Source of the DNA: Escherichia coli
GTDB taxonomy: Bacteria > Pseudomonadota > Gammaproteobacteria > Enterobacterales > Enterobacteriaceae
Direction: 5' to 3' (one strand)
NCBI RefSeq assembly: GCF_050920415.1
Contig: NZ_CP169309.1
DNA: 64,000 nt
Positions 1 through 21,019 of the stretch are shown here, in pieces. A program made the translations under genes and the position numbers. Below the pieces are notes generated by a model. It was given only the letters and a program-made list of their open reading frames with translations, was not told the DNA's origin and did not search any database. How positions within the stretch are numbered: position 1 is the stretch's first letter; every line of letters starts with the position of its first letter.

Positions 1-12
1 GGCAATGTAATC

Positions 13-915
13 ATGCGCTGGATTAAAACAGCCCGTGACCGTGATGAAATGGAAAGGCTAATGCAAGCGGCTTGCGATGCTTTCACGGAAGAAATACCCC
101 GAGCGGAGGCCGTGCCAGTGCCGGAAATTGATTTTCAAAAAAGTCTGGCCCTTTATCCGGTATTCGATTTGCATATAGGGGCGCTTGCTCATAAAGCTGA
201 GTGCGGCGAAAGCTACGACACCGGGATCGCTGAACGCGTGCTAAATGATTTCTTTGACTACGCGGTAGGCGCTGCGCCAATGTCTGAAAAGGCTGTTTTG
301 CTTCTCGGCGGTGATGTGCTTCACACTGACGGCCTGTTACCAGTGACGCCATCAAGTAATCACGTTTTAGATTGTGATTCACGCTACGCAAAACTGGTTT
401 ATGTGGCGATCCGGTCGGTCCGGCGTGCGGTCGGGAAGATGTTACTAAATCATAAGGATGTCGAGATCCAGGTATTATCCGGTAATCACGACCAATCAGG
501 TATGATCTGGCTACGTGCTGCGCTTGCGGCTTTTTACGAAGATGAGCCGCGTGTGACTGTTGACGTGTCACCTGCCATTGTCCACCACACACAGTACGGC
601 AAAACATTCCTTGCTTACCACCACGGGCACACTATCAAAAAGCCAGAAAATTTACTTTCTGCCTGCGTTTCTGACTGGCGGGAGGATTTCGGCAAGTCGT
701 CGGCGGTTTACGCTCATTGCGGGCACTGGCATCATCAACGGCTGATTGAATCATCGTTAGGCGTTGTCGAGTATCACGGCACATTAGCTGGCAAAGACGC
801 TTATTCAACGAATGGCGGCTGGCGGTCGCGGAGGCTGGCGGCGGTAATAATTTACAGTCCTGATCACGGGGAGATCGGGCGCTTTGTTTATTACCCTGAA
901 TATTCCATTTTGTAA
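13..915 (+). CDS. Calcineurin-like metallophosphoesterase-fold protein (phage-associated); may be 5'-truncated by the window edge
   Basis: Motifs DLHIG, GGDVLHTDG, GNHD, HHGH, GHWHH in the translation; reading frame is open back to position 1. Confidence 0.55.
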   Translation: MRWIKTARDRDEMERLMQAACDAFTEEIPRAEAVPVPEIDFQKSLALYPVFDLHIGALAHKAECGESYDTGIAERVLNDFFDYAVGAAPMSEKAVLLLGGDVLHTDGLLPVTPSSNHVLDCDSRYAKLVYVAIRSVRRAVGKMLLNHKDVEIQVLSGNHDQSGMIWLRAALAAFYEDEPRVTVDVSPAIVHHTQYGKTFLAYHHGHTIKKPENLLSACVSDWREDFGKSSAVYAHCGHWHHQRLIESSLGVVEYHGTLAGKDAYSTNGGWRSRRLAAVIIYSPDHGEIGRFVYYPEYSIL

Positions 916-933
916 ACCTGAGGAAATACCATA

Positions 934-2355
934 ATGGTGACTGAGCAAGTAAACTCATTACGCCAGGAACGGGAAGCTGCTGTGATAGGTGGACTCCTGT
1001 TAGGCGGGCTTACTCCTAACGCGCAAGATGTTCTTGCTACGCTCGATCCTGAAGTCTTCACCATTCCACTATATAAACGAGCGTTTGAGATCATCCGGGC
1101 GCAAGCCAGAAACAGAAACCTTATTGACGCGCTGATGGTCGGTGATGAAATCGGTAACGAAAATTTTGTCCCGCTAATGCAAACTGCGCGATCGTGTCCA
1201 TCTGCCGCCAACCTGAAGGGGTACGCCGCGCTATTGCAGGAGGAATATCAGCGGCGGCAAATGCTGGAACTAATGGACGATATACGCTACAACCTGGAAA
1301 CCGGGACACTTGAATCTGTCAGGGAGACGATGAAATATTTTGATTCCCGGTATTCAAAATTAAAGGTAACAAAAGATCAGATTATCCCGGTGCTGTTGCG
1401 CGATGCTGTCCAGGAATACACGGAAGTGCTAAGTAAACGCATGGAGTGTGGCGTGAACTCTGACAACATCAAAACAGGGATTGACCCACTCGACGAAATG
1501 TTAGGCGGCATTAACGCTACTGATCTGGTGCTTATAGCTGGACGCCCAGGGTCTGGTAAATCTGCGTTGGCGTTGGCAATTGCCCGCGCGGCGGCTGAAC
1601 GTCCATACCCTGGCAGCGAAGGTCAACGGGTCGGCGTTTTGCTGTTCACGCTTGAAATGTCGCTCGATCAGATGACTGAACGAGCTATCGCTGGCGCTGG
1701 GAATTTATCAACGGATTGCCTACGTAATCCGGTAAAACTGGATGACGAAGGATGGGCGCACGTTGCCCAGGGGATGAGCGCCCTTGCCGATCTCGATGTG
1801 TGGATTGTTGACGCATCGCAGTTAACGGTTGAGGAAATACGCGCCACCGTCGAACGGATGAAACAGGACCATCCTAATCTTGGAATGGTGATGATTGACT
1901 ACATCGGGTTAATGAAACTGGCTAAGGCCGAACGTCATGATCTCGCCGTAGGGCAATTGTCGTGGTCATTGAAAATGATGGCGAAAGAGTTGCGCGTGCC
2001 AGTGGCGGCGCTGGCGCAATTATCCCGCCGCGTTGAAGAACGACCGAACAAGCGCCCGAACAATTCTGATCTGCGTGATTCCGGTAATCTTGAACAAGAC
2101 GCAGACCGGATCATCATGGTCTACCGCGACGGCTACTACAACGAACAATCAGTTGCCCGCGAATACATGGAGATCATCGTTTCAAAAAACCGTCACGGGA
2201 AAACGGGGACTGTTTACCAGCGGTTTGACGATAACGGCAACATCATTCCATGCGACCAGGCTCGCGCGGCGTCCGCCTGCATCCAGTCAATGCAACAACG
2301 TCCGGCAGCAAGCCGATTCTCCCCACGAAATAACCAGAATAACTCATCCTTTTAA
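934..2355 (+). CDS. DnaB-like replicative DNA helicase (phage type)
   Basis: 473 aa; Walker A motif GRPGSGKSALALAIA and DnaB-like N- and C-terminal regions; GAGGA ribosome-binding site before the ATG. Confidence 0.8.
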   Translation: MVTEQVNSLRQEREAAVIGGLLLGGLTPNAQDVLATLDPEVFTIPLYKRAFEIIRAQARNRNLIDALMVGDEIGNENFVPLMQTARSCPSAANLKGYAALLQEEYQRRQMLELMDDIRYNLETGTLESVRETMKYFDSRYSKLKVTKDQIIPVLLRDAVQEYTEVLSKRMECGVNSDNIKTGIDPLDEMLGGINATDLVLIAGRPGSGKSALALAIARAAAERPYPGSEGQRVGVLLFTLEMSLDQMTERAIAGAGNLSTDCLRNPVKLDDEGWAHVAQGMSALADLDVWIVDASQLTVEEIRATVERMKQDHPNLGMVMIDYIGLMKLAKAERHDLAVGQLSWSLKMMAKELRVPVAALAQLSRRVEERPNKRPNNSDLRDSGNLEQDADRIIMVYRDGYYNEQSVAREYMEIIVSKNRHGKTGTVYQRFDDNGNIIPCDQARAASACIQSMQQRPAASRFSPRNNQNNSSF

Positions 2356-2434
2356 TTAACTTGAGCAAACGGCTTACCGGAAAGTTGATCTCTTTCTGGT
2401 GGCTGTTTTCGCGCTTAAAACGAGGCGAAAAACA

Positions 2435-2992
2435 ATGAGCATTGAACTTGAAACAAAAGTTATCAATATCCTTGAACTGGACGGCATCGCAACAATGCAC
2501 CAGCTACGCCAGAAAACCGGATTATCAGCGGAATATGACGAAGCCGGATGTTTGCCTGAGACAATTAAACACTTGATTGATACTGGTATTGTCGAGCGTG
2601 TATATACATATTTCGGACCGCGCCGCAGATTATTGGGGTATCGAATTAAATATTTGTATGCACAACGTCGTGATCGTGTGGCGGCGTTATTTAGTGACTA
2701 CAGCGTTAAGAAGCGTATGCGTGACATTAGCGCGGAAACTGGTATCCCGTGGAATTACCTGTCGCGCACGCTGCGTTTAATGGTACTTGATGAAACGCTT
2801 TGCATAGACACCAATAAACACGGCCTTAACTTTTACTCACTGTTTAAACCTGGTCGCTTTGGTCACGCTAATGATCTCGCGTTTGATTTTGACAGCCGCC
2901 TGAATGAATACCGGAAAAATAACGGCCTGTTACCGGATAAACCAGTATTTGAGATCGAAAAACTTAACGGTGAAACGGGGTTAGAATTATGA
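2435..2992 (+). CDS. Hypothetical phage protein with an N-terminal winged-helix-like segment
   Basis: ORF 2399-2992; start chosen at MSIELETKV after a GAGG ribosome-binding site; no recognised family. Confidence 0.45.
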   Translation: MSIELETKVINILELDGIATMHQLRQKTGLSAEYDEAGCLPETIKHLIDTGIVERVYTYFGPRRRLLGYRIKYLYAQRRDRVAALFSDYSVKKRMRDISAETGIPWNYLSRTLRLMVLDETLCIDTNKHGLNFYSLFKPGRFGHANDLAFDFDSRLNEYRKNNGLLPDKPVFEIEKLNGETGLEL

Positions 2993-3195
2993 GACGGGTA
3001 ATCTTTTATTCAGTTGAAACGTTTGTCGACGATACGCGCGTTTATTATCCGTGGGAAGTATACGACGCAAAGGTGTATACACCGCCACTGATGCGGAAAT
3101 ATAAACACGTAAAATTTAACCGGGTTTTTGTGCCAATGCGCGATGCATTGCGGGCGCTGCGCGGGGAATTACGAAACACAATGCGGATTGTGTAA
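2989..3195 (+). CDS. Hypothetical small phage protein (68 aa)
   Basis: ATGA start/stop overlap with the upstream ORF suggests translational coupling; no recognisable motif. Confidence 0.35.
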   Translation: MRRVIFYSVETFVDDTRVYYPWEVYDAKVYTPPLMRKYKHVKFNRVFVPMRDALRALRGELRNTMRIV

Positions 3196-3205
3196 GGAGG
3201 GGATT

Positions 3206-3403
3206 ATGAACAAGGATTTAGAATTGACCGTGGAGGATTTAAGCACGATTGCGGAATACATGCGCGGCGATGATCCTGATAAACCTGTCACTGTTGACAT
3301 GAAATATTTAAAAGGCGCTTACATGACAAGCTCGCGGCTAATTTCTTTGCAGGCGATTATGTATGCGCGGGCGCAATGGAAAAATAGCAACGGTGTATTA
3401 TGA
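3206..3403 (+). CDS. Hypothetical small phage protein (65 aa)
   Basis: Strong Shine-Dalgarno AAGGAGG 6 nt upstream of the ATG at 3206; stop overlaps the NinB-like start. Confidence 0.45.
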   Translation: MNKDLELTVEDLSTIAEYMRGDDPDKPVTVDMKYLKGAYMTSSRLISLQAIMYARAQWKNSNGVL

Positions 3404-3831
3404 GGCAAATTAGATTTGAAGTAGTTAATGACGCCGTGAAAGAAAATGCTATCAGGCAGATAAGGGAAATACAGCCTGATAGCAAAAGCCCGCTGATAAT
3501 TACCATCCAGGAGAAAACCCGCTCACTAAGCCAAAATGCGTTGCTTTGGGCGCTGCTAACCGACATTAGCGATCAGGTTAATTGGTACGGCAAGAAGCTG
3601 TCTCCGGAAGACTGGAAAGCGGTATTCACTGCCGGACTTAAGAAATATGGCGTCGTCCCTAACCTGGATAAATCCGGCTTCGTTGTATTGGGAACGTCTA
3701 CAAGCCGGATGAGCAAATCGGAATTCAGTGAACTAATCGAATTAATTTACTCGTTCGGTGCTGAACATAATGTCCAATGGTCGGGTGATACGAAATTAAA
3801 TGAGGAATTCATAAAACGCTGGGGGCAATAA
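3400..3831 (+). CDS. NinB-like recombination protein (lambda Orf/NinB family)
   Basis: 143 aa; pattern IQEKTRSLSQNALLWALLTDISDQVNWYGKKLSPEDWKAVFTAGL resembles lambda NinB as recalled from memory. Confidence 0.7.
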   Translation: MRQIRFEVVNDAVKENAIRQIREIQPDSKSPLIITIQEKTRSLSQNALLWALLTDISDQVNWYGKKLSPEDWKAVFTAGLKKYGVVPNLDKSGFVVLGTSTSRMSKSEFSELIELIYSFGAEHNVQWSGDTKLNEEFIKRWGQ

Positions 3832-4007
3832 TGGCGCGTTATTATATGGCTAAACCTACCGGAATTTTGTATAAGGTTGATGGCGAATACGTTTTTTATT
3901 TTCACAACCAGGCGCGAGAGTGGCGATTGTGTCACGCGCACTTTCAGCACGAAATAGAAAACCACCCTGAATATTTTATTAAGGTTGACAATGTAACGGT
4001 GGCGTAA
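3831..4007 (+). CDS. Hypothetical small phage protein (58 aa)
   Basis: ATG overlaps the NinB-like stop by 1 nt (TAATG); translation MARYYMAKPTGILYKVDGEYVFYFHNQAREWRLCHAHFQHEIENHPEYFIKVDNVTVA; below the ORF-track length cut-off. Confidence 0.35.
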   Translation: MARYYMAKPTGILYKVDGEYVFYFHNQAREWRLCHAHFQHEIENHPEYFIKVDNVTVA

Positions 4008-4022
4008 CTGAGGATAGGCAAA

Positions 4023-4667
4023 ATGAATAAACTTAAAGCAATTGGCGTAATTCGCCATCGTGTAGACCCGGACTACCCTTCTTTTGAGGTTGCCACATAC
4101 CGCAACGAATACCAATATGGATCATCTTTCCTTGTGGGTGTTCGCGCTGATACTGGCGGCACTTATTCAGTTATGGCGGCTTCATGTGTTTTTGAAGAAT
4201 ATAAAAATATAGATGATGACGGCATGAATAAAGAAAGCGAAATTATTGATGAATTAATCGAAGATGAGCGGCATGATTGCGATGCGCCGAAAGTCACGGA
4301 ATGGAAACCAGGAGAAAAGCCTCCGTGCGGCGTGTGGCTTGATTGTTATTATCCTGATGGCTATCACATTGGGATTTTAATGTTTAAATTTATCGGTGAT
4401 AAATACGGGGTATACACAGAAAAAGGCAGTATACAGAAAGAAAATGCTATTGAATGGGGTTTTTATAATTATTATTTATACGTTGATCCGAAAGAAAAAG
4501 CACTGGCACAAATTGCGTTTGCGTTGGCTGCTAAGGTTATTGGTGAGGATGCGGCAGGAGAAATAAATTTCAATCGTGATAATGATTATTCGCGTGATTA
4601 TCGGAATATGGCAAAAGCCATTATTAATGGGGATATCCCGCTAACTAAATATAACGGGGATAAGTGA
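4023..4667 (+). CDS. Hypothetical protein, AT-rich cargo ORF (214 aa), function unknown
   Basis: GAGGA ribosome-binding site; markedly lower GC than flanking genes; acidic stretch followed by a Cys/His-containing segment (HDCDAPKVTEWKPGEKPPCGVWLDCYYPDGYH). Confidence 0.5.
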   Translation: MNKLKAIGVIRHRVDPDYPSFEVATYRNEYQYGSSFLVGVRADTGGTYSVMAASCVFEEYKNIDDDGMNKESEIIDELIEDERHDCDAPKVTEWKPGEKPPCGVWLDCYYPDGYHIGILMFKFIGDKYGVYTEKGSIQKENAIEWGFYNYYLYVDPKEKALAQIAFALAAKVIGEDAAGEINFNRDNDYSRDYRNMAKAIINGDIPLTKYNGDK

Positions 4668-4897
4668 TGGATAAAACCGCGACATTGTTATTGACTACGG
4701 CACGAATAAGGGAAATGCTCGGAGGAATAAGTAGGACAACATTCAGAGTATGGAAAATGAAATGGGAAGCGGCTGGAACACCATTTCCTGAACCGCTTCA
4801 CGAATTATCAACTACGTCGCGCCCTGTATATCGTTATCAAGATGTAATGCAGTTCTTTAAGTCAGTAGGCTTGCTTTCTGATACTGATAAAACGTAA
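4664..4897 (+). CDS. Putative excisionase / AlpA-family DNA-binding protein
   Basis: 77 aa; helix-turn-helix-like TTARIREMLGGISRTTFRVWK; lies next to the integrase; start overlaps the upstream stop (ATGA). Confidence 0.45.
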   Translation: MMDKTATLLLTTARIREMLGGISRTTFRVWKMKWEAAGTPFPEPLHELSTTSRPVYRYQDVMQFFKSVGLLSDTDKT

Positions 4898-6057
4898 TTA
4901 GCCCATAATTCCGCAGCGTCTTTCTGTTCTTCTACATAATCATATCTGTCATAAACTCCTAATACTCCGCCCAGGGTATGGCCCAACATTTTTTCGGCTA
5001 CCTGGGCGGTCACGCCTAATGCCGCTAAATGCGTGCGGCACGTCCGGCGCAAATCATGCGCAGTAAAACCCGCCTTAAATCCAATTTCATTACTAAGCCT
5101 TGTCGCTAGTCTTGTGCACACAGCTTTATCCATTGGTTTACCATCCAGCGACAATACCGCAGGGAAAACTATGTCGAAGTTGTGACAATTAAACATCATG
5201 CTTAATAGCTCGACGCTTAACGTTGACAGGCCGCGCGTAAACCGCTTTTTGTTTTTGGATAGTTCCGCAGGAATATTCCATACCCTGTTATTGAGATCAA
5301 AATGTTCACGCTTTGCTAGCCTCAATTCTACCGTCCTGCATCCTGTTAATAGCAGTAGTCTGAAGAATGTCATATTGGCCTTAGACATAAAATCGCCAGT
5401 CGTAAAACGCCAGAATTCCCCTACTTCCTCGCCAGATAAATATCTGTCGATCTTGCGCGGCGGTTTGCCAACGTCTTCCACTCGCAACAAGCGGATCTCG
5501 TTGTCTTTTACTATCCCTTTCCTTTGCGCCATAGCGACAATGGATTTCATGCGTCGTAACATCGCGCCAGCCTGTACCGGATGGCCCGCTTTCGTTATCT
5601 CTGAGAATATTGCCTCCCACGCCCTTGCGTTAATGTCATCCACAATAAAATCGCCATACCTCTTGATTATGTGCTTTTGTAAGTTTTGCTTGATCTCTTT
5701 GTATCCCTTAATTTCCCTGGTCGTCTGTTTATTAAGATAGTTGTTAACGATATCGCTAACGGTTGCTCTCGCCCTCGCCTCTTCAATGCGCTGCTTCTTA
5801 GCAAGTCCGGGATCTTTGCCGTCTGCTAATATCGCCTTGCACTCAATTACCGCTAGCCTGGCTTCCTTTAGCGTCATTATGCCATAGTTGCCTAGCTTCA
5901 TTCTTTTAGGCTTCCCGTCATACCTGTAGCGATACTGAAACGTAATTACGCCTTTCGGGCTTACCCTTACTGACAGACCGCCGCCATCCGGGATCTCGAC
6001 CGGACCATCATAACTTTTACCGTGGATGCTTCTTAACTTAGTGTCAGATAACGCCAT
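4837..6057 (-). CDS. Site-specific tyrosine integrase (P4 family)
   Basis: 406 aa; N-terminal arm-binding-type region (GLSVRVSPKGVITFQYRYRYDGK), C-terminal catalytic signature HDLRRT...LGH...YDRY. Confidence 0.85.
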   Translation of the reverse strand: MALSDTKLRSIHGKSYDGPVEIPDGGGLSVRVSPKGVITFQYRYRYDGKPKRMKLGNYGIMTLKEARLAVIECKAILADGKDPGLAKKQRIEEARARATVSDIVNNYLNKQTTREIKGYKEIKQNLQKHIIKRYGDFIVDDINARAWEAIFSEITKAGHPVQAGAMLRRMKSIVAMAQRKGIVKDNEIRLLRVEDVGKPPRKIDRYLSGEEVGEFWRFTTGDFMSKANMTFFRLLLLTGCRTVELRLAKREHFDLNNRVWNIPAELSKNKKRFTRGLSTLSVELLSMMFNCHNFDIVFPAVLSLDGKPMDKAVCTRLATRLSNEIGFKAGFTAHDLRRTCRTHLAALGVTAQVAEKMLGHTLGGVLGVYDRYDYVEEQKDAAELWANYVLSVSESKPTDLKNCITS

Positions 6058-6464
6058 AATCGCCCCTTATTTGGTGCACAACATGGTACACAAATCATGG
6101 TTTACGCAATATAACGCAAAAGCGCGCTTGTTTACAGCGAAAACCAGTAAATCTACTAAATTCATGGCGTTAGGGGTGATTTTGCTTGCGTATGTTTACG
6201 CTTGTGCGCGGTATGTAGCATTAGAAAGAGAAATGCTGCTGACCAACAGCGCACAACACGTGACTGAAACAGAGTGCTTCATAAGTTACCCTCAAACCTG
6301 CGTTAATAATCATGCGTAATTATTTGTTTCGCCTTAAAGAAATGCAAACAACTTCCGGCAAAAAAGTGATACGAGATCGATAACATAGCGTTGAAGAAAA
6401 GGATTTGATAATCCGCAAAATTTGCACAACACTGCCTGTAATACTTCCTGAACCAGAGACGATC

Positions 6465-7193
6465 ATGACCGTAACTCGCCCACGCGCCGAACGCGGCGCA
6501 TTTCCGCCCGGTACAGAACATTACGGACGTTCATTATTGGGCGCGCCTTTGATCTGGTTTCCGGCCCCAGCCGCCAGTCACGAAAGTGGTTTGATTCTGG
6601 CTGGCACCCACGGTGATGAAAACTCTTCGGTCGTGACCCTCTCCTGTGCTCTGCGGACATTGACACCTTCTTTGCGCCGCCATCATGTGGTGCTGTGTGT
6701 GAATCCTGACGGCTGCCAGTTAGGGTTACGGGCCAATGCTAATGGCGTGGATTTAAATAGAAACTTTCCGGCAGCAAACTGGAAGGAAGGTGAAACGGTT
6801 TATCGCTGGAACAGCGCCGCTGAAGAACGTGATGTCGTTTTACTGACAGGTGACAAACCTGGCTCCGAACCTGAAACTCAGGCGCTGTGCCAGCTTATAC
6901 ATCGCATTCAACCTGCCTGGGTGGTCTCATTCCACGATCCACTGGCCTGTATTGAAGACCCCAGACACAGCGAATTAGGTGAATGGCTGGCCCAGGCGTT
7001 TGAATTGCCACTGGTAACCAGCGTCGGTTATGAAACGCCTGGCTCTTTCGGCAGTTGGTGTGCAGATCTGAACTTGCATTGCATCACCGCAGAGTTTCCG
7101 CCCATCTCCTCCGACGAAGCCAGCGAAAAATATCTCTTTGCGATGGCAAACTTGCTGCGCTGGCATCCTAAAGATGCAATTCACCCGTTGTGA
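6465..7193 (+). CDS. mpaA: Murein peptide amidase A (gamma-D-Glu-Dap amidase)
   Basis: Translation MTVTRPRAERGAFPPGTEHYGRS...; 242 aa from the internal ATG, matching the known length. Confidence 0.85.
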   Translation: MTVTRPRAERGAFPPGTEHYGRSLLGAPLIWFPAPAASHESGLILAGTHGDENSSVVTLSCALRTLTPSLRRHHVVLCVNPDGCQLGLRANANGVDLNRNFPAANWKEGETVYRWNSAAEERDVVLLTGDKPGSEPETQALCQLIHRIQPAWVVSFHDPLACIEDPRHSELGEWLAQAFELPLVTSVGYETPGSFGSWCADLNLHCITAEFPPISSDEASEKYLFAMANLLRWHPKDAIHPL

Positions 7194-8251: not shown

Positions 8252-8758
8252 ATGTCACAAACCGTTCATTTCCAGGGCAACCCGGTTACAGTCGCCAATT
8301 CCATCCCGCTGGCGGGTAGCAAAGCGCAGACTTTTACTCTCGTGGCAAAAGATCTGTCTGACGTCACCCTCGGTCAGTTTGCGGGTAAACGCAAAGTGCT
8401 GAACATTTTCCCGAGTATTGATACCGGTGTTTGCGCCGCATCAGTACGTAAGTTTAACCAACTGGCAACCGAGATCGACAACACCGTTGTGCTGTGTATC
8501 TCTGCTGATCTGCCGTTCGCCCAGTCTCGTTTCTGCGGCGCAGAAGGTCTGAACAACGTTATCACCCTCTCCACTTTCCGTAACGCTGAATTCCTGCAAG
8601 CCTACGGTGTGGCAATTGCTGATGGCCCACTGAAAGGTCTGGCAGCGCGTGCCGTTGTGGTTATCGATGAAAATGACAATGTGATTTTCAGCCAGCTGGT
8701 TGATGAAATCACCACCGAGCCGGATTACGAAGCAGCTCTGGCTGTACTGAAAGCATAA
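8252..8758 (+). CDS. tpx: Thiol peroxidase
   Basis: 168 aa; [28 protein letters not shown]... Confidence 0.92.
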
Positions 8759-8762
8759 GTTA

Positions 8763-8795
8763 ATATGCCTGATGGTGTTGCACCATCAGGCATAT
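8763..8795. terminator. Hairpin between convergent tpx and tyrR (putative bidirectional terminator)
   Basis: Perfect 15-bp inverted repeat atatgcctgatggtg / caccatcaggcatat with a 3-nt loop. Confidence 0.55.
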
Positions 8796-8801
8796 TCGCG
8801 C

Positions 8802-10343
8802 TTACTCTTCGTTCTTCTTCTGACTCAGACCATATTCCCGCAACTTATTGGCAATCGCGGTATGCGAAACGCCGAGACGTTTTGCCAGTTTGCGCGTGCT
8901 GGGATAATTGCGATAAAGCTGACTTAATACCGAGCGTTCAAAACGGCTGGTAATTTCGTCCAGCGAACCTTCCATCGCATCTTCGCCCACGGCTACCGTT
9001 GCGGCGTCATAATCCGGCAACAAAATATCCTGAGGACGCAGCTCATAGCCGTCCAGTTGTGTCAGTGCGCGATAGATAGCGTTCTTTAACTGCCGCACAT
9101 TTCCCGGCCACGCATAACGCGTAAGTACAGTATTCAGGTCAGCGGCCAGTTTCGGACGCGGCACGCCCTGCTCGTCGGCAAAGCGGGCGACGAACAGCTC
9201 GGTTAACGGCATGATGTCCTGCGGACAGTCACGTAACGGCGGCAGATTGAGCGTCAACACGTTCAGACGATAATAGAGATCTTCACGGAACACGCCTTTT
9301 TGCACCAGTTCGACCAAATTCTTCTGCGTAGCGCAAATAACCCTTACATCGACATGCACTTCATGATCTTCACCAACTCGACGGAAAGTACCATCATTAA
9401 GGAAACGCAGTAATTTCGCCTGCATCCTTGGCGACATCTCGCCTATCTCATCTAACAGCACCGAACCACCGTTCGCCTGCTCAAAGAACCCTTTTTTACC
9501 TTCCGGAGCATGACCAAACAGTTCACTCTCGACCGCATCTTCCGGTATAGACGCGCAGTTCAGCGCCAGATAAGGTTTGCCCGCTCGTGGGCTTGCCTGA
9601 TGGCAGGCGTAGGCAAAGAGATCTTTACCTGTACCGGTGTCACCCGTAATCAGCAACGGCGCGCTTAGCATCGCCAGTTTCTGCGCCTGTTCGACAACAT
9701 GCTTCATTTTCGGGCTGACGGCGACAATTTGACTGAAGGCACTGACGTCCTGTGCAGCGACATTCTGCAACTGACGACCCATACGAATCGTCGAGCGCAA
9801 CATCACCACCGCACCGGTCAGAACGTGTTGATCATTTTCATCCTGAAGATAAACAGGCGTAATCTCCATCAGGAAATTCTGCCCATTAATAACGACATGC
9901 TCGTTATGCGAGTCTTGCGGTTCGCTTTCCAGCCAGCGTAAAAAATTAAAGCCGTTAATTAATTGCGCGGCGGTATGGTTGCGCAGGCGATCCAATTTTT
10001 GCCCAAAAAGCTGACAGCTCGCCGGGTTCGCCATATCCACTTTGCTTTTCATATCAACAGAAAGCACAGGCTCAGGCAACGCCTCCAGTAACGCGCTCAA
10101 CGCCAGATGCTCACGTTCGGAAGGCATCCACGGAACAGTGCGCACATCGGTAACACCTGCAATACGGCGTATTTCGGCCATCAGACTGCTGAAACTTTCA
10201 AATTCCAGTTCGGCAAAATTGAGGTAGATTCGCCCAATGGGGTCAATCTCAATACCGCGTAAATCAATACCTCTTAGCACGAGTAGATCGAGTAATTCGC
10301 GGGTCAGACCGAGTCGGTCTTCACAAAAGACTTCCAGACGCAT
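8802..10343 (-). CDS. tyrR: Transcriptional regulator TyrR (sigma54-type AAA+ fold)
   Basis: MRLEVFCEDRLGLTRELLDLLVLRGIDLRGIEIDPIGRIYLNF...; 513 aa from the internal ATG. Confidence 0.9.
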   Translation of the reverse strand: MRLEVFCEDRLGLTRELLDLLVLRGIDLRGIEIDPIGRIYLNFAELEFESFSSLMAEIRRIAGVTDVRTVPWMPSEREHLALSALLEALPEPVLSVDMKSKVDMANPASCQLFGQKLDRLRNHTAAQLINGFNFLRWLESEPQDSHNEHVVINGQNFLMEITPVYLQDENDQHVLTGAVVMLRSTIRMGRQLQNVAAQDVSAFSQIVAVSPKMKHVVEQAQKLAMLSAPLLITGDTGTGKDLFAYACHQASPRAGKPYLALNCASIPEDAVESELFGHAPEGKKGFFEQANGGSVLLDEIGEMSPRMQAKLLRFLNDGTFRRVGEDHEVHVDVRVICATQKNLVELVQKGVFREDLYYRLNVLTLNLPPLRDCPQDIMPLTELFVARFADEQGVPRPKLAADLNTVLTRYAWPGNVRQLKNAIYRALTQLDGYELRPQDILLPDYDAATVAVGEDAMEGSLDEITSRFERSVLSQLYRNYPSTRKLAKRLGVSHTAIANKLREYGLSQKKNEE

Positions 10344-20230: not shown

Positions 20231-21019
20231 TTAGCAGGTGCGCAACCAGGCCAAAGAATCACGGTACGCCTGAGCAGGATCTTCTGCCCGAATGCGCCCT
20301 TCATACACCACATAGCCCTGATAGTTATCGGCGCGCAGCTGTTCAAACAGCGCGTGGAAATCGAGGGTGCCGCTGCCCGGCTGATAGCGATGGTTATCGG
20401 CAATATGCACATGACCAAGCAGGTCACGGTTGTCATGCAGCGCCTGCGCCAGGTTATCCTCTTCGATGTTCATGTGATAGAAATCGCCGATAATCTGCAC
20501 ATGTTTAAGGTTGTTTTCGACGATGTAACGACGAGCATCGGCGAGCGTGTTGATCATGTGGTCCTGATAGCGGTTTAGCGGTTCGAGATACACCACCGTT
20601 CCGGTACGCGCGGCCACCTTTTCCAGGAAACGCAGGGAATCGCTCACCATTTGACGATCGCCGTCCAGGCTGCGCGGTGAGGTCATCGGCGGTAAGCGGA
20701 AGGTAAACATGCCCCACGCAGCCGGAACGACAATACCTTTACCGCCCACTTCCGCCAGCGCCTCAAGAATGCGCTCGATCTGCTTTAAACCATTAAGACG
20801 ACGCTCTTCGATAAAGTCGCCAATCCAGCCGTCATAGCCGCCGCAGGCGGTGGTCACCGGTAAACCGGTTTCTTTGATCGCTGCTTTGACTTCTTCGAGA
20901 TTGTTGACCAGCAGTTTGCCGTCAATCTCAAAACCATCAAAACCCATCTCTTTGATATAACGAAATTTCTCCAGAATATTTTCCGGAAAGAAGGCCTGAT
21001 TCTGTGTGCCGATTTTCAT
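20231..21019 (-). CDS. ycjR: Sugar phosphate isomerase/epimerase (TIM barrel)
   Basis: 262 aa; MKIGTQNQAFFPENILEKFRYIKEMGFDGFEI. Confidence 0.85.
   Translation of the reverse strand: MKIGTQNQAFFPENILEKFRYIKEMGFDGFEIDGKLLVNNLEEVKAAIKETGLPVTTACGGYDGWIGDFIEERRLNGLKQIERILEALAEVGGKGIVVPAAWGMFTFRLPPMTSPRSLDGDRQMVSDSLRFLEKVAARTGTVVYLEPLNRYQDHMINTLADARRYIVENNLKHVQIIGDFYHMNIEEDNLAQALHDNRDLLGHVHIADNHRYQPGSGTLDFHALFEQLRADNYQGYVVYEGRIRAEDPAQAYRDSLAWLRTC

Follow-up and report, generated by a model that had tools for sequence, protein, structure and literature searches.

A conserved block of small genes, probably part of the distal early operon of an mEp021-like prophage in Escherichia coli

Positions 2435–4007 of a 64,000-nucleotide stretch of E. 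coli DNA (contig NZ_CP169309.1; hereafter the window) most probably belong to the distal early replication and recombination operon of an mEp021-like temperate phage integrated at mppA, a reading to which we assign a probability of roughly 0.7. One transcript would run through the gene for a DnaB-type helicase into five further genes, four ORFs of 185, 68, 65 and 58 codons and a NinB gene, which would be translated by way of closely spaced or overlapping start/stop junctions. The genes of this region of the window are arranged as follows.

Cut by the window start, + strand: exonuclease-like gene (phrog_704), upstream of DnaB
934–2355, + strand: DnaB-type replicative helicase (PF03796, 1e-75; PF00772, 9e-12), the upstream neighbor, assigned to the same operon
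2435–2992, + strand: ORF185, homolog of mEp021 gp08, predicted tandem winged-helix protein
2989–3195, + strand: ORF68, homolog of mEp021 gp07, basic orphan protein (pI 10.2)
3194–3200, + strand: AAGGAGG, Shine-Dalgarno of ORF65, read from the sequence
3206–3403, + strand: ORF65, homolog of mEp021 gp06, mildly acidic small protein (pI 5.1)
3400–3831, + strand: NinB/Orf recombination mediator (PF05772, 8e-47)
3831–4007, + strand: ORF58, conserved small protein
4023–4667, + strand: ORF214, homolog of mEp021 gp03, acidic and highly variable, next in the operon
4664–4897, + strand: 77-aa helix-turn-helix (HTH) protein, AlpA/excisionase-like candidate, last gene of the operon (phrog_4745, 8e-9)
4837–6057, − strand: tyrosine integrase (PF13356 and PF00589), convergent with the operon, at the end of the prophage

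An earlier, sequence-only reading of this DNA had placed ORFs of 185, 68, 65 and 58 aa around NinB, joined by ATGA and TAATG overlaps and by a strong AAGGAGG, and all of these coordinates, overlaps and motif positions were verified in the sequence. The ATG of ORF68 at 2989 overlaps the ORF185 TGA (ATGA), the AAGGAGG lies 5 nt 5′ of the ORF65 ATG and overlaps the ORF68 TAA, ORF65 and NinB share a second ATGA, and NinB and ORF58 are joined by TAATG. Weaker Shine-Dalgarno-like G-runs precede ORF185 (GAGG, 2422–2425), ORF68 (GGGG, 2977–2980), NinB (GGTG, 3392–3395) and ORF58 (GGGGG, 3821–3825). An alternative ORF185 start at GTG 2399, which would give a protein of 197 aa, was discarded, since in some relatives an in-frame stop occurs at that place. 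The junction geometry (−4, +9/10, −4 and −1) is kept among about 46 related loci, in most of which ORF68 and ORF65 lie 9–10 nt apart. A consensus scan of the + strand from 1 to 6000 found no σ70-like site, and the block is therefore most simply taken to be read from an upstream early promoter. The conserved overlaps and the lack of a + strand promoter-like site inside the block bear out the earlier proposal of a co-translated module, in that the genes form a tightly coupled, co-directional block. This coupling is real but ordinary, since the lambda and P22 nin regions are equally packed with overlapping junctions, and it reflects how compactly phage early operons are usually built.

Positions 1–6057 make up the right end of a prophage, with the host genes mpaA and ycjG lying beyond the integrase. 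The 3′ end of the 77-aa HTH gene overlaps the convergent integrase gene; its product, which PGAP names a helix-turn-helix protein, gave a weak match to Xis_Gifsy_1 (0.06). When the four ORFs were searched by tblastn against about 50,000 phage genomes, matches were confined to seven phages (mEp010, mEp013, mEp021, mEp044, mEp515, mEp554 and MagusPhagus), always in the same order. In the mEp021 record (GenBank MH706966), gp08, gp07 and gp06 correspond to ORF185, ORF68 and ORF65, and gp04 is NinB; ORF58 is encoded in mEp021 yet carries no annotation there. Protein identity to mEp021 is 88% for gp08, 71% for gp07, 81% for gp06, 97% for NinB and 91% for the ORF58 counterpart. The mEp021 genes also agree in order and junctions, and their operon is likewise closed by an HTH gene with a convergent integrase, but a DNA methyltransferase is inserted between gp06 and NinB in mEp021, an insert that the window lacks, and the window integrase is of type III (mppA) whereas type I (ydaM) is reported for mEp021. 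The mEp021 counterparts of these genes are still called hypothetical in the literature.

E. coli STEC308 and M15 carry the same prophage with its full layout visible. Reading rightward, a cI-like repressor gene, a cro-like gene and genes for a replication protein, the exonuclease-like protein and DnaB are followed by the block, the HTH gene and int, and genes for Erf, SSB, NinG, RusA and a Q-like antiterminator lie in an operon of opposite direction. The gene layout recurs in a further 43 IMG/VR loci. The integrase region is 96% identical at the DNA level to the LSU61 prophage, and the host flank is mppA/mpaA/ycjG; LSU61 has a type III integrase and occupies mppA (PMC11893012). Phages of the mEpimmI group, described as Nus-dependent and non-lambdoid, use ydaM, abgT or mppA as their integration site, depending on the type of integrase (PMC11893012), and that paper on mEpimmI phages contains nothing specific on the gp08–gp06 and ORF58 genes. 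On the basis of conserved core-gene synteny, the element is assigned to the mEpimmI (mEp021-like) group, and by the identity of its integrase region and host flank its integration site is mppA. The sequence-only reading had missed that the block is the gp08–gp06/NinB segment of this described group. The group is common in the human gut.

Like the nin regions of lambda and P22, the block is a run of small, overlapping, mostly uncharacterized delayed-early genes, NinB included, that follows the replication genes. NinB is the only gene homologous between them: it is 51–52% identical to lambda and P22 NinB and scores 158.7 bits against a PF05772 gathering cut-off of 23.8, and 3400–3831 is the only ORF of the block to pass. 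Homology to Ren- or Nin-type proteins, named in the earlier reading as evidence that would count against it, was found for none of the four ORFs by blastp, hhalign and HMMs with lambda and P22; in a 22-protein database, blastp and the family HMMs gave nothing better than an E-value of 0.1. In contrast to lambda and P22, the genes for NinG, RusA and the Q-like antiterminator lie here in the opposite-direction operon, and the + strand operon has xis/int at its end, not Q. With Erf and SSB in that operon as well, the region corresponds only in part to a lambda-type nin region. The block is an ordinary set of early genes, conserved but uncharacterized, from a phage group already described; its importance goes little further than annotation, and ORF185 is the one feature worth follow-up.

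The coding status of the ORFs was assessed with the 43 IMG/VR loci plus E. coli and phage loci, about 46 in all. All four ORFs are intact and syntenic in nearly all of these loci, the exceptions being ORF68 in locus L031, ORF65 in L046 and ORF58 in L004. Pooled Nei–Gojobori dN/dS was 0.31 for ORF185, 0.19 for ORF68, 0.17 for ORF65 and 0.14 for ORF58, compared to 0.07 for NinB and 0.29 for ORF214, and variable sites in the block ORFs are in excess at third codon positions. In a six-frame test, the annotated frame had the lowest omega for each ORF, and stops interrupt all other frames but two, which run antisense across ORF65 and ORF58. These antisense ORFs were rejected on account of an omega above that of the sense frame; in the −1 frame the excess is only modest, and we take the open antisense frames to be mirror-frame artefacts, an expected mirror effect. 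A divergent phage contig, L050, has the whole block in order plus one extra 61-aa gene, at identities of 57% for DnaB, 70% for NinB, 29% for ORF185, 40% for ORF68, 39% for ORF65 and 36% for ORF58. ORF214, which had no family match in Pfam or NCBIfam, is 50–82% identical among relatives. Because the four small ORFs are intact and syntenic in about 46 loci and L050, have low dN/dS and are best in the sense frame, they are, by these comparative measures, genuine protein-coding genes.

Family searches characterized the three smallest proteins as follows. Among the seven phages ORF68 is 71–100% identical; its N-terminal strand region is conserved, a YTPPLMRKY motif is invariant, and the middle of the protein is hypervariable. 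When 1.84 billion representatives were searched exhaustively with an ORF68 profile, its own family and two distant small proteins came up; matches of the profile to eukaryotic SRCR proteins were repeat-summed and were discarded as spurious. ORF65 matched phrog_21123, a family with no assigned function, at 1.7e-10 and is 44% identical to Eta_0038 of the virulent Serratia phage Eta, and its C-terminus varies, with 65-aa versus 70/75-aa alleles. Word-indexed searches with ORF65, and with an ORF65 profile to which the Eta and L050 homologs had been added, found close, unnamed E. coli and phage relatives only. ORF58 is 90–98% identical in the mEp phages and has divergent alleles at 55–67% identity. 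The haemolysis-inducing protein Ipe of mEp021 was compared by length as a possible identity for one of these ORFs; the reported 83, 82, 77 and 72 aa are a mismatch, and the identity is doubtful. No match to ORF68, ORF65 or ORF58 was found in Pfam, NCBIfam or PADLOC, and judged from these searches the three are narrow orphan families. They are probably independent small accessory early proteins that act on the DNA metabolism of phage or host, or on host defences, in a modulating role.

That ORF68, ORF65 and ORF58 are chance ORFs or annotation noise is scarcely credible. ORF68 carries no PGAP annotation in STEC308 or M15, ORF58 is absent from the annotation of the mEp021 record, and all three lack a known domain, but they are intact in nearly all 46 loci despite 20–45% protein divergence, have dN/dS values of 0.14–0.19 with the sense frame best, and are kept in L050 at 36–40% identity. 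Thus gp06–gp08 and the ORF missing from the mEp021 record are confirmed as genuine conserved genes, and the 68-aa gene has been missed by RefSeq annotation in at least two genomes. The sequence-only reading had also noted that 2989–3195 and 3206–3403 are of a size suited to a toxin–antitoxin-like or regulatory pair. For such a pair, in which a basic toxin would be held by an acidic neutralizer or the two proteins would regulate each other, one can cite the adjacency and similarly small size of ORF68 and ORF65, their opposite charges (pI 10.2 versus 5.1), the tight spacing with a strong Shine-Dalgarno, and their joint presence in the whole mEpimmI group and L050. In searches of Pfam, NCBIfam and PADLOC, however, neither protein matches a toxin–antitoxin or defence family, and the partners occur apart: a relative of ORF65 is found without ORF68 in Serratia phage Eta, where it adjoins an unrelated membrane protein, and a relative of ORF68 in locus L052 heads an operon without ORF65. 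Their alleles also reassort freely. Each adjacent gene pair, ORF68/ORF65 included, shows all four possible combinations of alleles across 43 distinct haplotypes, indicating that the genes recombine independently. The consensus scan (+ strand, 1–6000) found no promoter-like site belonging to the pair, which lies inside a lytic early operon rather than in a lysogen-expressed moron, and an AF2 model of ORF68 fused through a linker to ORF65 was poor and showed no confident complex (pTM 0.40, pLDDT 54.7, with the ORF65 half at 41–54). We consider a paired function very improbable and have removed the speculative toxin–antitoxin call.

ORF185, in which a possible winged helix had been noticed from the sequence, is modeled by AF2 with two in tandem. 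The alignment supplied to AF2 was shallow, with 18 sequences in two clades, and the model has a pLDDT of 77 and comprises the following parts.

aa ~3–71: first winged-helix domain (WH1), AF2 model
aa ~85–136: second winged-helix domain (WH2), AF2 model
aa 156–185 (nt 2900–2989, + strand): conserved C-terminal tail, LNEYRKNNGLLPDKPVFEIEKLNGETGLEL

Both domains have the H-H-H-strand-strand topology of solved winged-helix domains and are followed by two low-confidence helices (pLDDT 46–68 in the tail); as modeled, ORF185 folds as two winged-helix domains plus a short helical tail. Foldseek returned the multi-winged-helix scaffolds ScpB, ESCRT-II, RPC34/62 and TFIIIC and, among viral models, mEp021 gp08 followed by hypothetical proteins of 156–157 aa from Vi II-E1-type phages. 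Identity to tandem winged-helix proteins (SelB WH3–4, ScpB, ESCRT-II subunits and RPC34) is just 10–18%, they share no family profile with ORF185, and ORF185 adds the conserved 30-residue tail. A tandem winged-helix fold by itself does not tell DNA from RNA or protein binding. The Vi II-E1 proteins resemble ORF185 in size and tandem winged-helix layout (Foldseek E-value 6e-7), and ORF185 matches phrog_1687 over its full length at 1.7e-8, although the likely Vi II-E1 counterpart does not adjoin replication genes. The name of phrog_1687, ‘MarR family transcription regulator’, was given automatically, and MarR dimerization helices are absent from ORF185. Assignment to the MarR family (PF01047) was rejected, as there was no MarR match in Pfam and two tandem winged-helix domains are modeled instead; the only Pfam matches were marginal HTH ones (HTH_24 and AbiEi_4, E-value 0.035). 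A word-indexed search found only close E. coli and phage relatives, all unnamed, a profile search of PDB sequences gave nothing significant, and rescanning IMG/VR with a divergent alignment of ORF185 yielded no new loci.

ORF185 proteins come as two alleles, one of 185 aa and one of 175 aa, which are about 36% identical over aa 1–155 and have in common a near-invariant 30-residue C-terminal tail, whose motif YRK..L.P...FE.EKLN is retained in L050. Omega in the tail is 0.08 at a pS of 0.25, compared to 0.23–0.46 in the rest of the protein, indicating that the constraint is on the protein and not on the DNA. Because alleles so divergent over aa 1–155 share a tail that is kept in L050, ORF185 is probably a nucleic-acid-binding adaptor in which an exchangeable tandem winged-helix cassette would give recognition and the invariant C-terminal 30 residues would dock onto a conserved partner. 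In its fuller form, which we offer tentatively as a possibility rather than an expectation, ORF185 would be a specificity adaptor whose swapped cassette retargets a nucleic acid or host factor and whose tail tethers it to the helicase, NinB or a defence component, and its hypervariable small neighbors ORF68, ORF58 and ORF214 would, under diversifying exchange, serve in counter-defence or host takeover. The swapped domains and fixed tail of ORF185 could reveal a new recruitment interface within the replication/recombination module of these phages.

Two other roles for ORF185 draw on its position. It could act as an accessory replication protein whose tail serves to recruit the phage DnaB helicase to the origin or to load it there, as the place of its gene right after DnaB within the replication module, the conservation of the tail beside a highly conserved helicase (92–99% identical) and a modular design recalling the N-terminal and C-terminal domains of lambda O would suggest. 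A search for iterons and palindromes near ORF185 found chance two-copy repeats alone, however, and there is no co-variation between the winged-helix allele and the allele of the gp13 replication protein, both of which argue against an origin-specific role; in addition, P22 lacks such a gene despite having a 57%-identical helicase (gp12). Helicase loading by ORF185 is thus unlikely in our estimation. The same position, directly downstream of the last replication gene, is that of lambda Ren, and ORF185 could be a functional counterpart of Ren, shielding the phage against an exclusion system or a defence system. High allelic diversity, typical of host-interaction genes, would fit such a role, and residues 95–141, on WH2, gave a weak match to phrog_142 (‘Ren-like exclusion protein’, E-value 1.3e-3). 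Yet no stretch of that match passes alone, blastp finds no similarity between ORF185 and Ren, hhalign gives a probability of 3% and the ORF185 family HMM scores Ren at an E-value of 0.12 (2.9 bits), a similarity no greater than any two winged helices would give. Ren is, moreover, a single domain of 96 aa, as opposed to a tandem winged helix with a tail, and we regard this equivalence as distinctly unlikely.

The 79-nt gap between DnaB and ORF185 is predicted to fold with a minimum free energy of −27.5 kcal/mol (z = −4.2) and contains two elements.

2368–2407, + strand: conserved intergenic RNA hairpin, a 16-bp stem followed by GUUUUCG
2408–2429, + strand: small second hairpin, covering the GAGG Shine-Dalgarno of ORF185

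Rfam gave no RNA family in 1–7000, and the larger hairpin is missing in the divergent relative L050. Among 17 distinct sequences, the stems are conserved and the loop is variable; changes in the stem are all one-sided and wobble-compatible, with zero compensatory pairs, and covariation is therefore no proof of the structure. A terminator-like match spans 2374–2402, and the hairpin is possibly a weak terminator or attenuator or an mRNA-stability element. Lying just past the last replication gene, like the terminator annotated directly behind the P22 helicase gene, it resembles in position the ‘L2’ terminator inside ninA of P22.

Two of the small early genes that flank NinB are missing from some existing annotations. 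The 68-aa gene (ORF68), which is under clear purifying selection, was located at the following positions in the window and in two related loci:

2989-3195, window, 68-aa gene (ORF68)
20690-20896, L001, the same gene
8690-8896, L002, the same gene

PGAP did not annotate this gene in E. coli STEC308 or M15, both of which carry the same prophage layout, and the GenBank record of mEp021 lacks the 58-aa gene. The ORF65 frame is open for a further 26 codons upstream, from a TTG at 3128 (3128-3205), and this extension overlaps the end of ORF68. In P0133, one of the database variants of ORF68, the protein is frameshifted into this upstream-open ORF65 frame; nothing in the analysis pointed to a function for the extension.

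The junctions on either side of NinB serve as insertion points for additional genes, with inserts in mEp021, L043, and L030. In mEp021, an N4/N6 DNA methyltransferase gene lies between gp06 and NinB (L003 6978-7715), and L043 likewise carries a 724-nt insert between its ORF65/gp06 homolog and NinB (about 4766-5492). The 450-nt insert of L030 (about 5385-5834) is downstream of NinB.

Between the helicase gene and ORF185, we found a strong RNA hairpin that is kept among relatives (within 2368-2429; z = -4.2), with conserved stems and a variable loop. The Shine-Dalgarno sequence of ORF185 is paired within a second, small hairpin in this region. The strong hairpin may act as a nin-type terminator, or as an attenuator, for the N-like Gp17 system.

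The genes discussed below occupy these window positions:

13-915, first ORF, C-terminal part of a phrog_704 'DNA repair exonuclease' protein
4023-4667, ORF214, homolog of gp03
4664-4897, 77-aa HTH gene, candidate excisionase
4837-6057, integrase gene, convergent with the HTH gene

The first ORF is truncated by the window start and retains 300 C-terminal residues of a protein of approximately 370 aa; this protein had no match in Pfam or NCBIfam, although it is the product of a core gene adjoining the helicase gene. A family match was also sought for ORF214, and none was found. ORF214 is strongly acidic (net charge about -12) and varies more than any other protein in the block (50-82% identity), but its dN/dS is nonetheless 0.29.

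The 77-aa HTH gene and the convergent integrase gene share 61 nt at the 3' end of the latter, and mEp021 has the same arrangement of these two genes. In the integrase region (within window 4837-6404), identity to the LSU61 and GF66.2 prophages is 96%; both of these have a type III integrase and mppA as insertion site (PMC11893012). A segment at ~6214-6369 has matches at the prophage end in LSU61/GF66.2 and, in E. coli lacking the prophage, at the mppA-mpaA junction. This segment probably contains the att core together with the displaced start of mppA.
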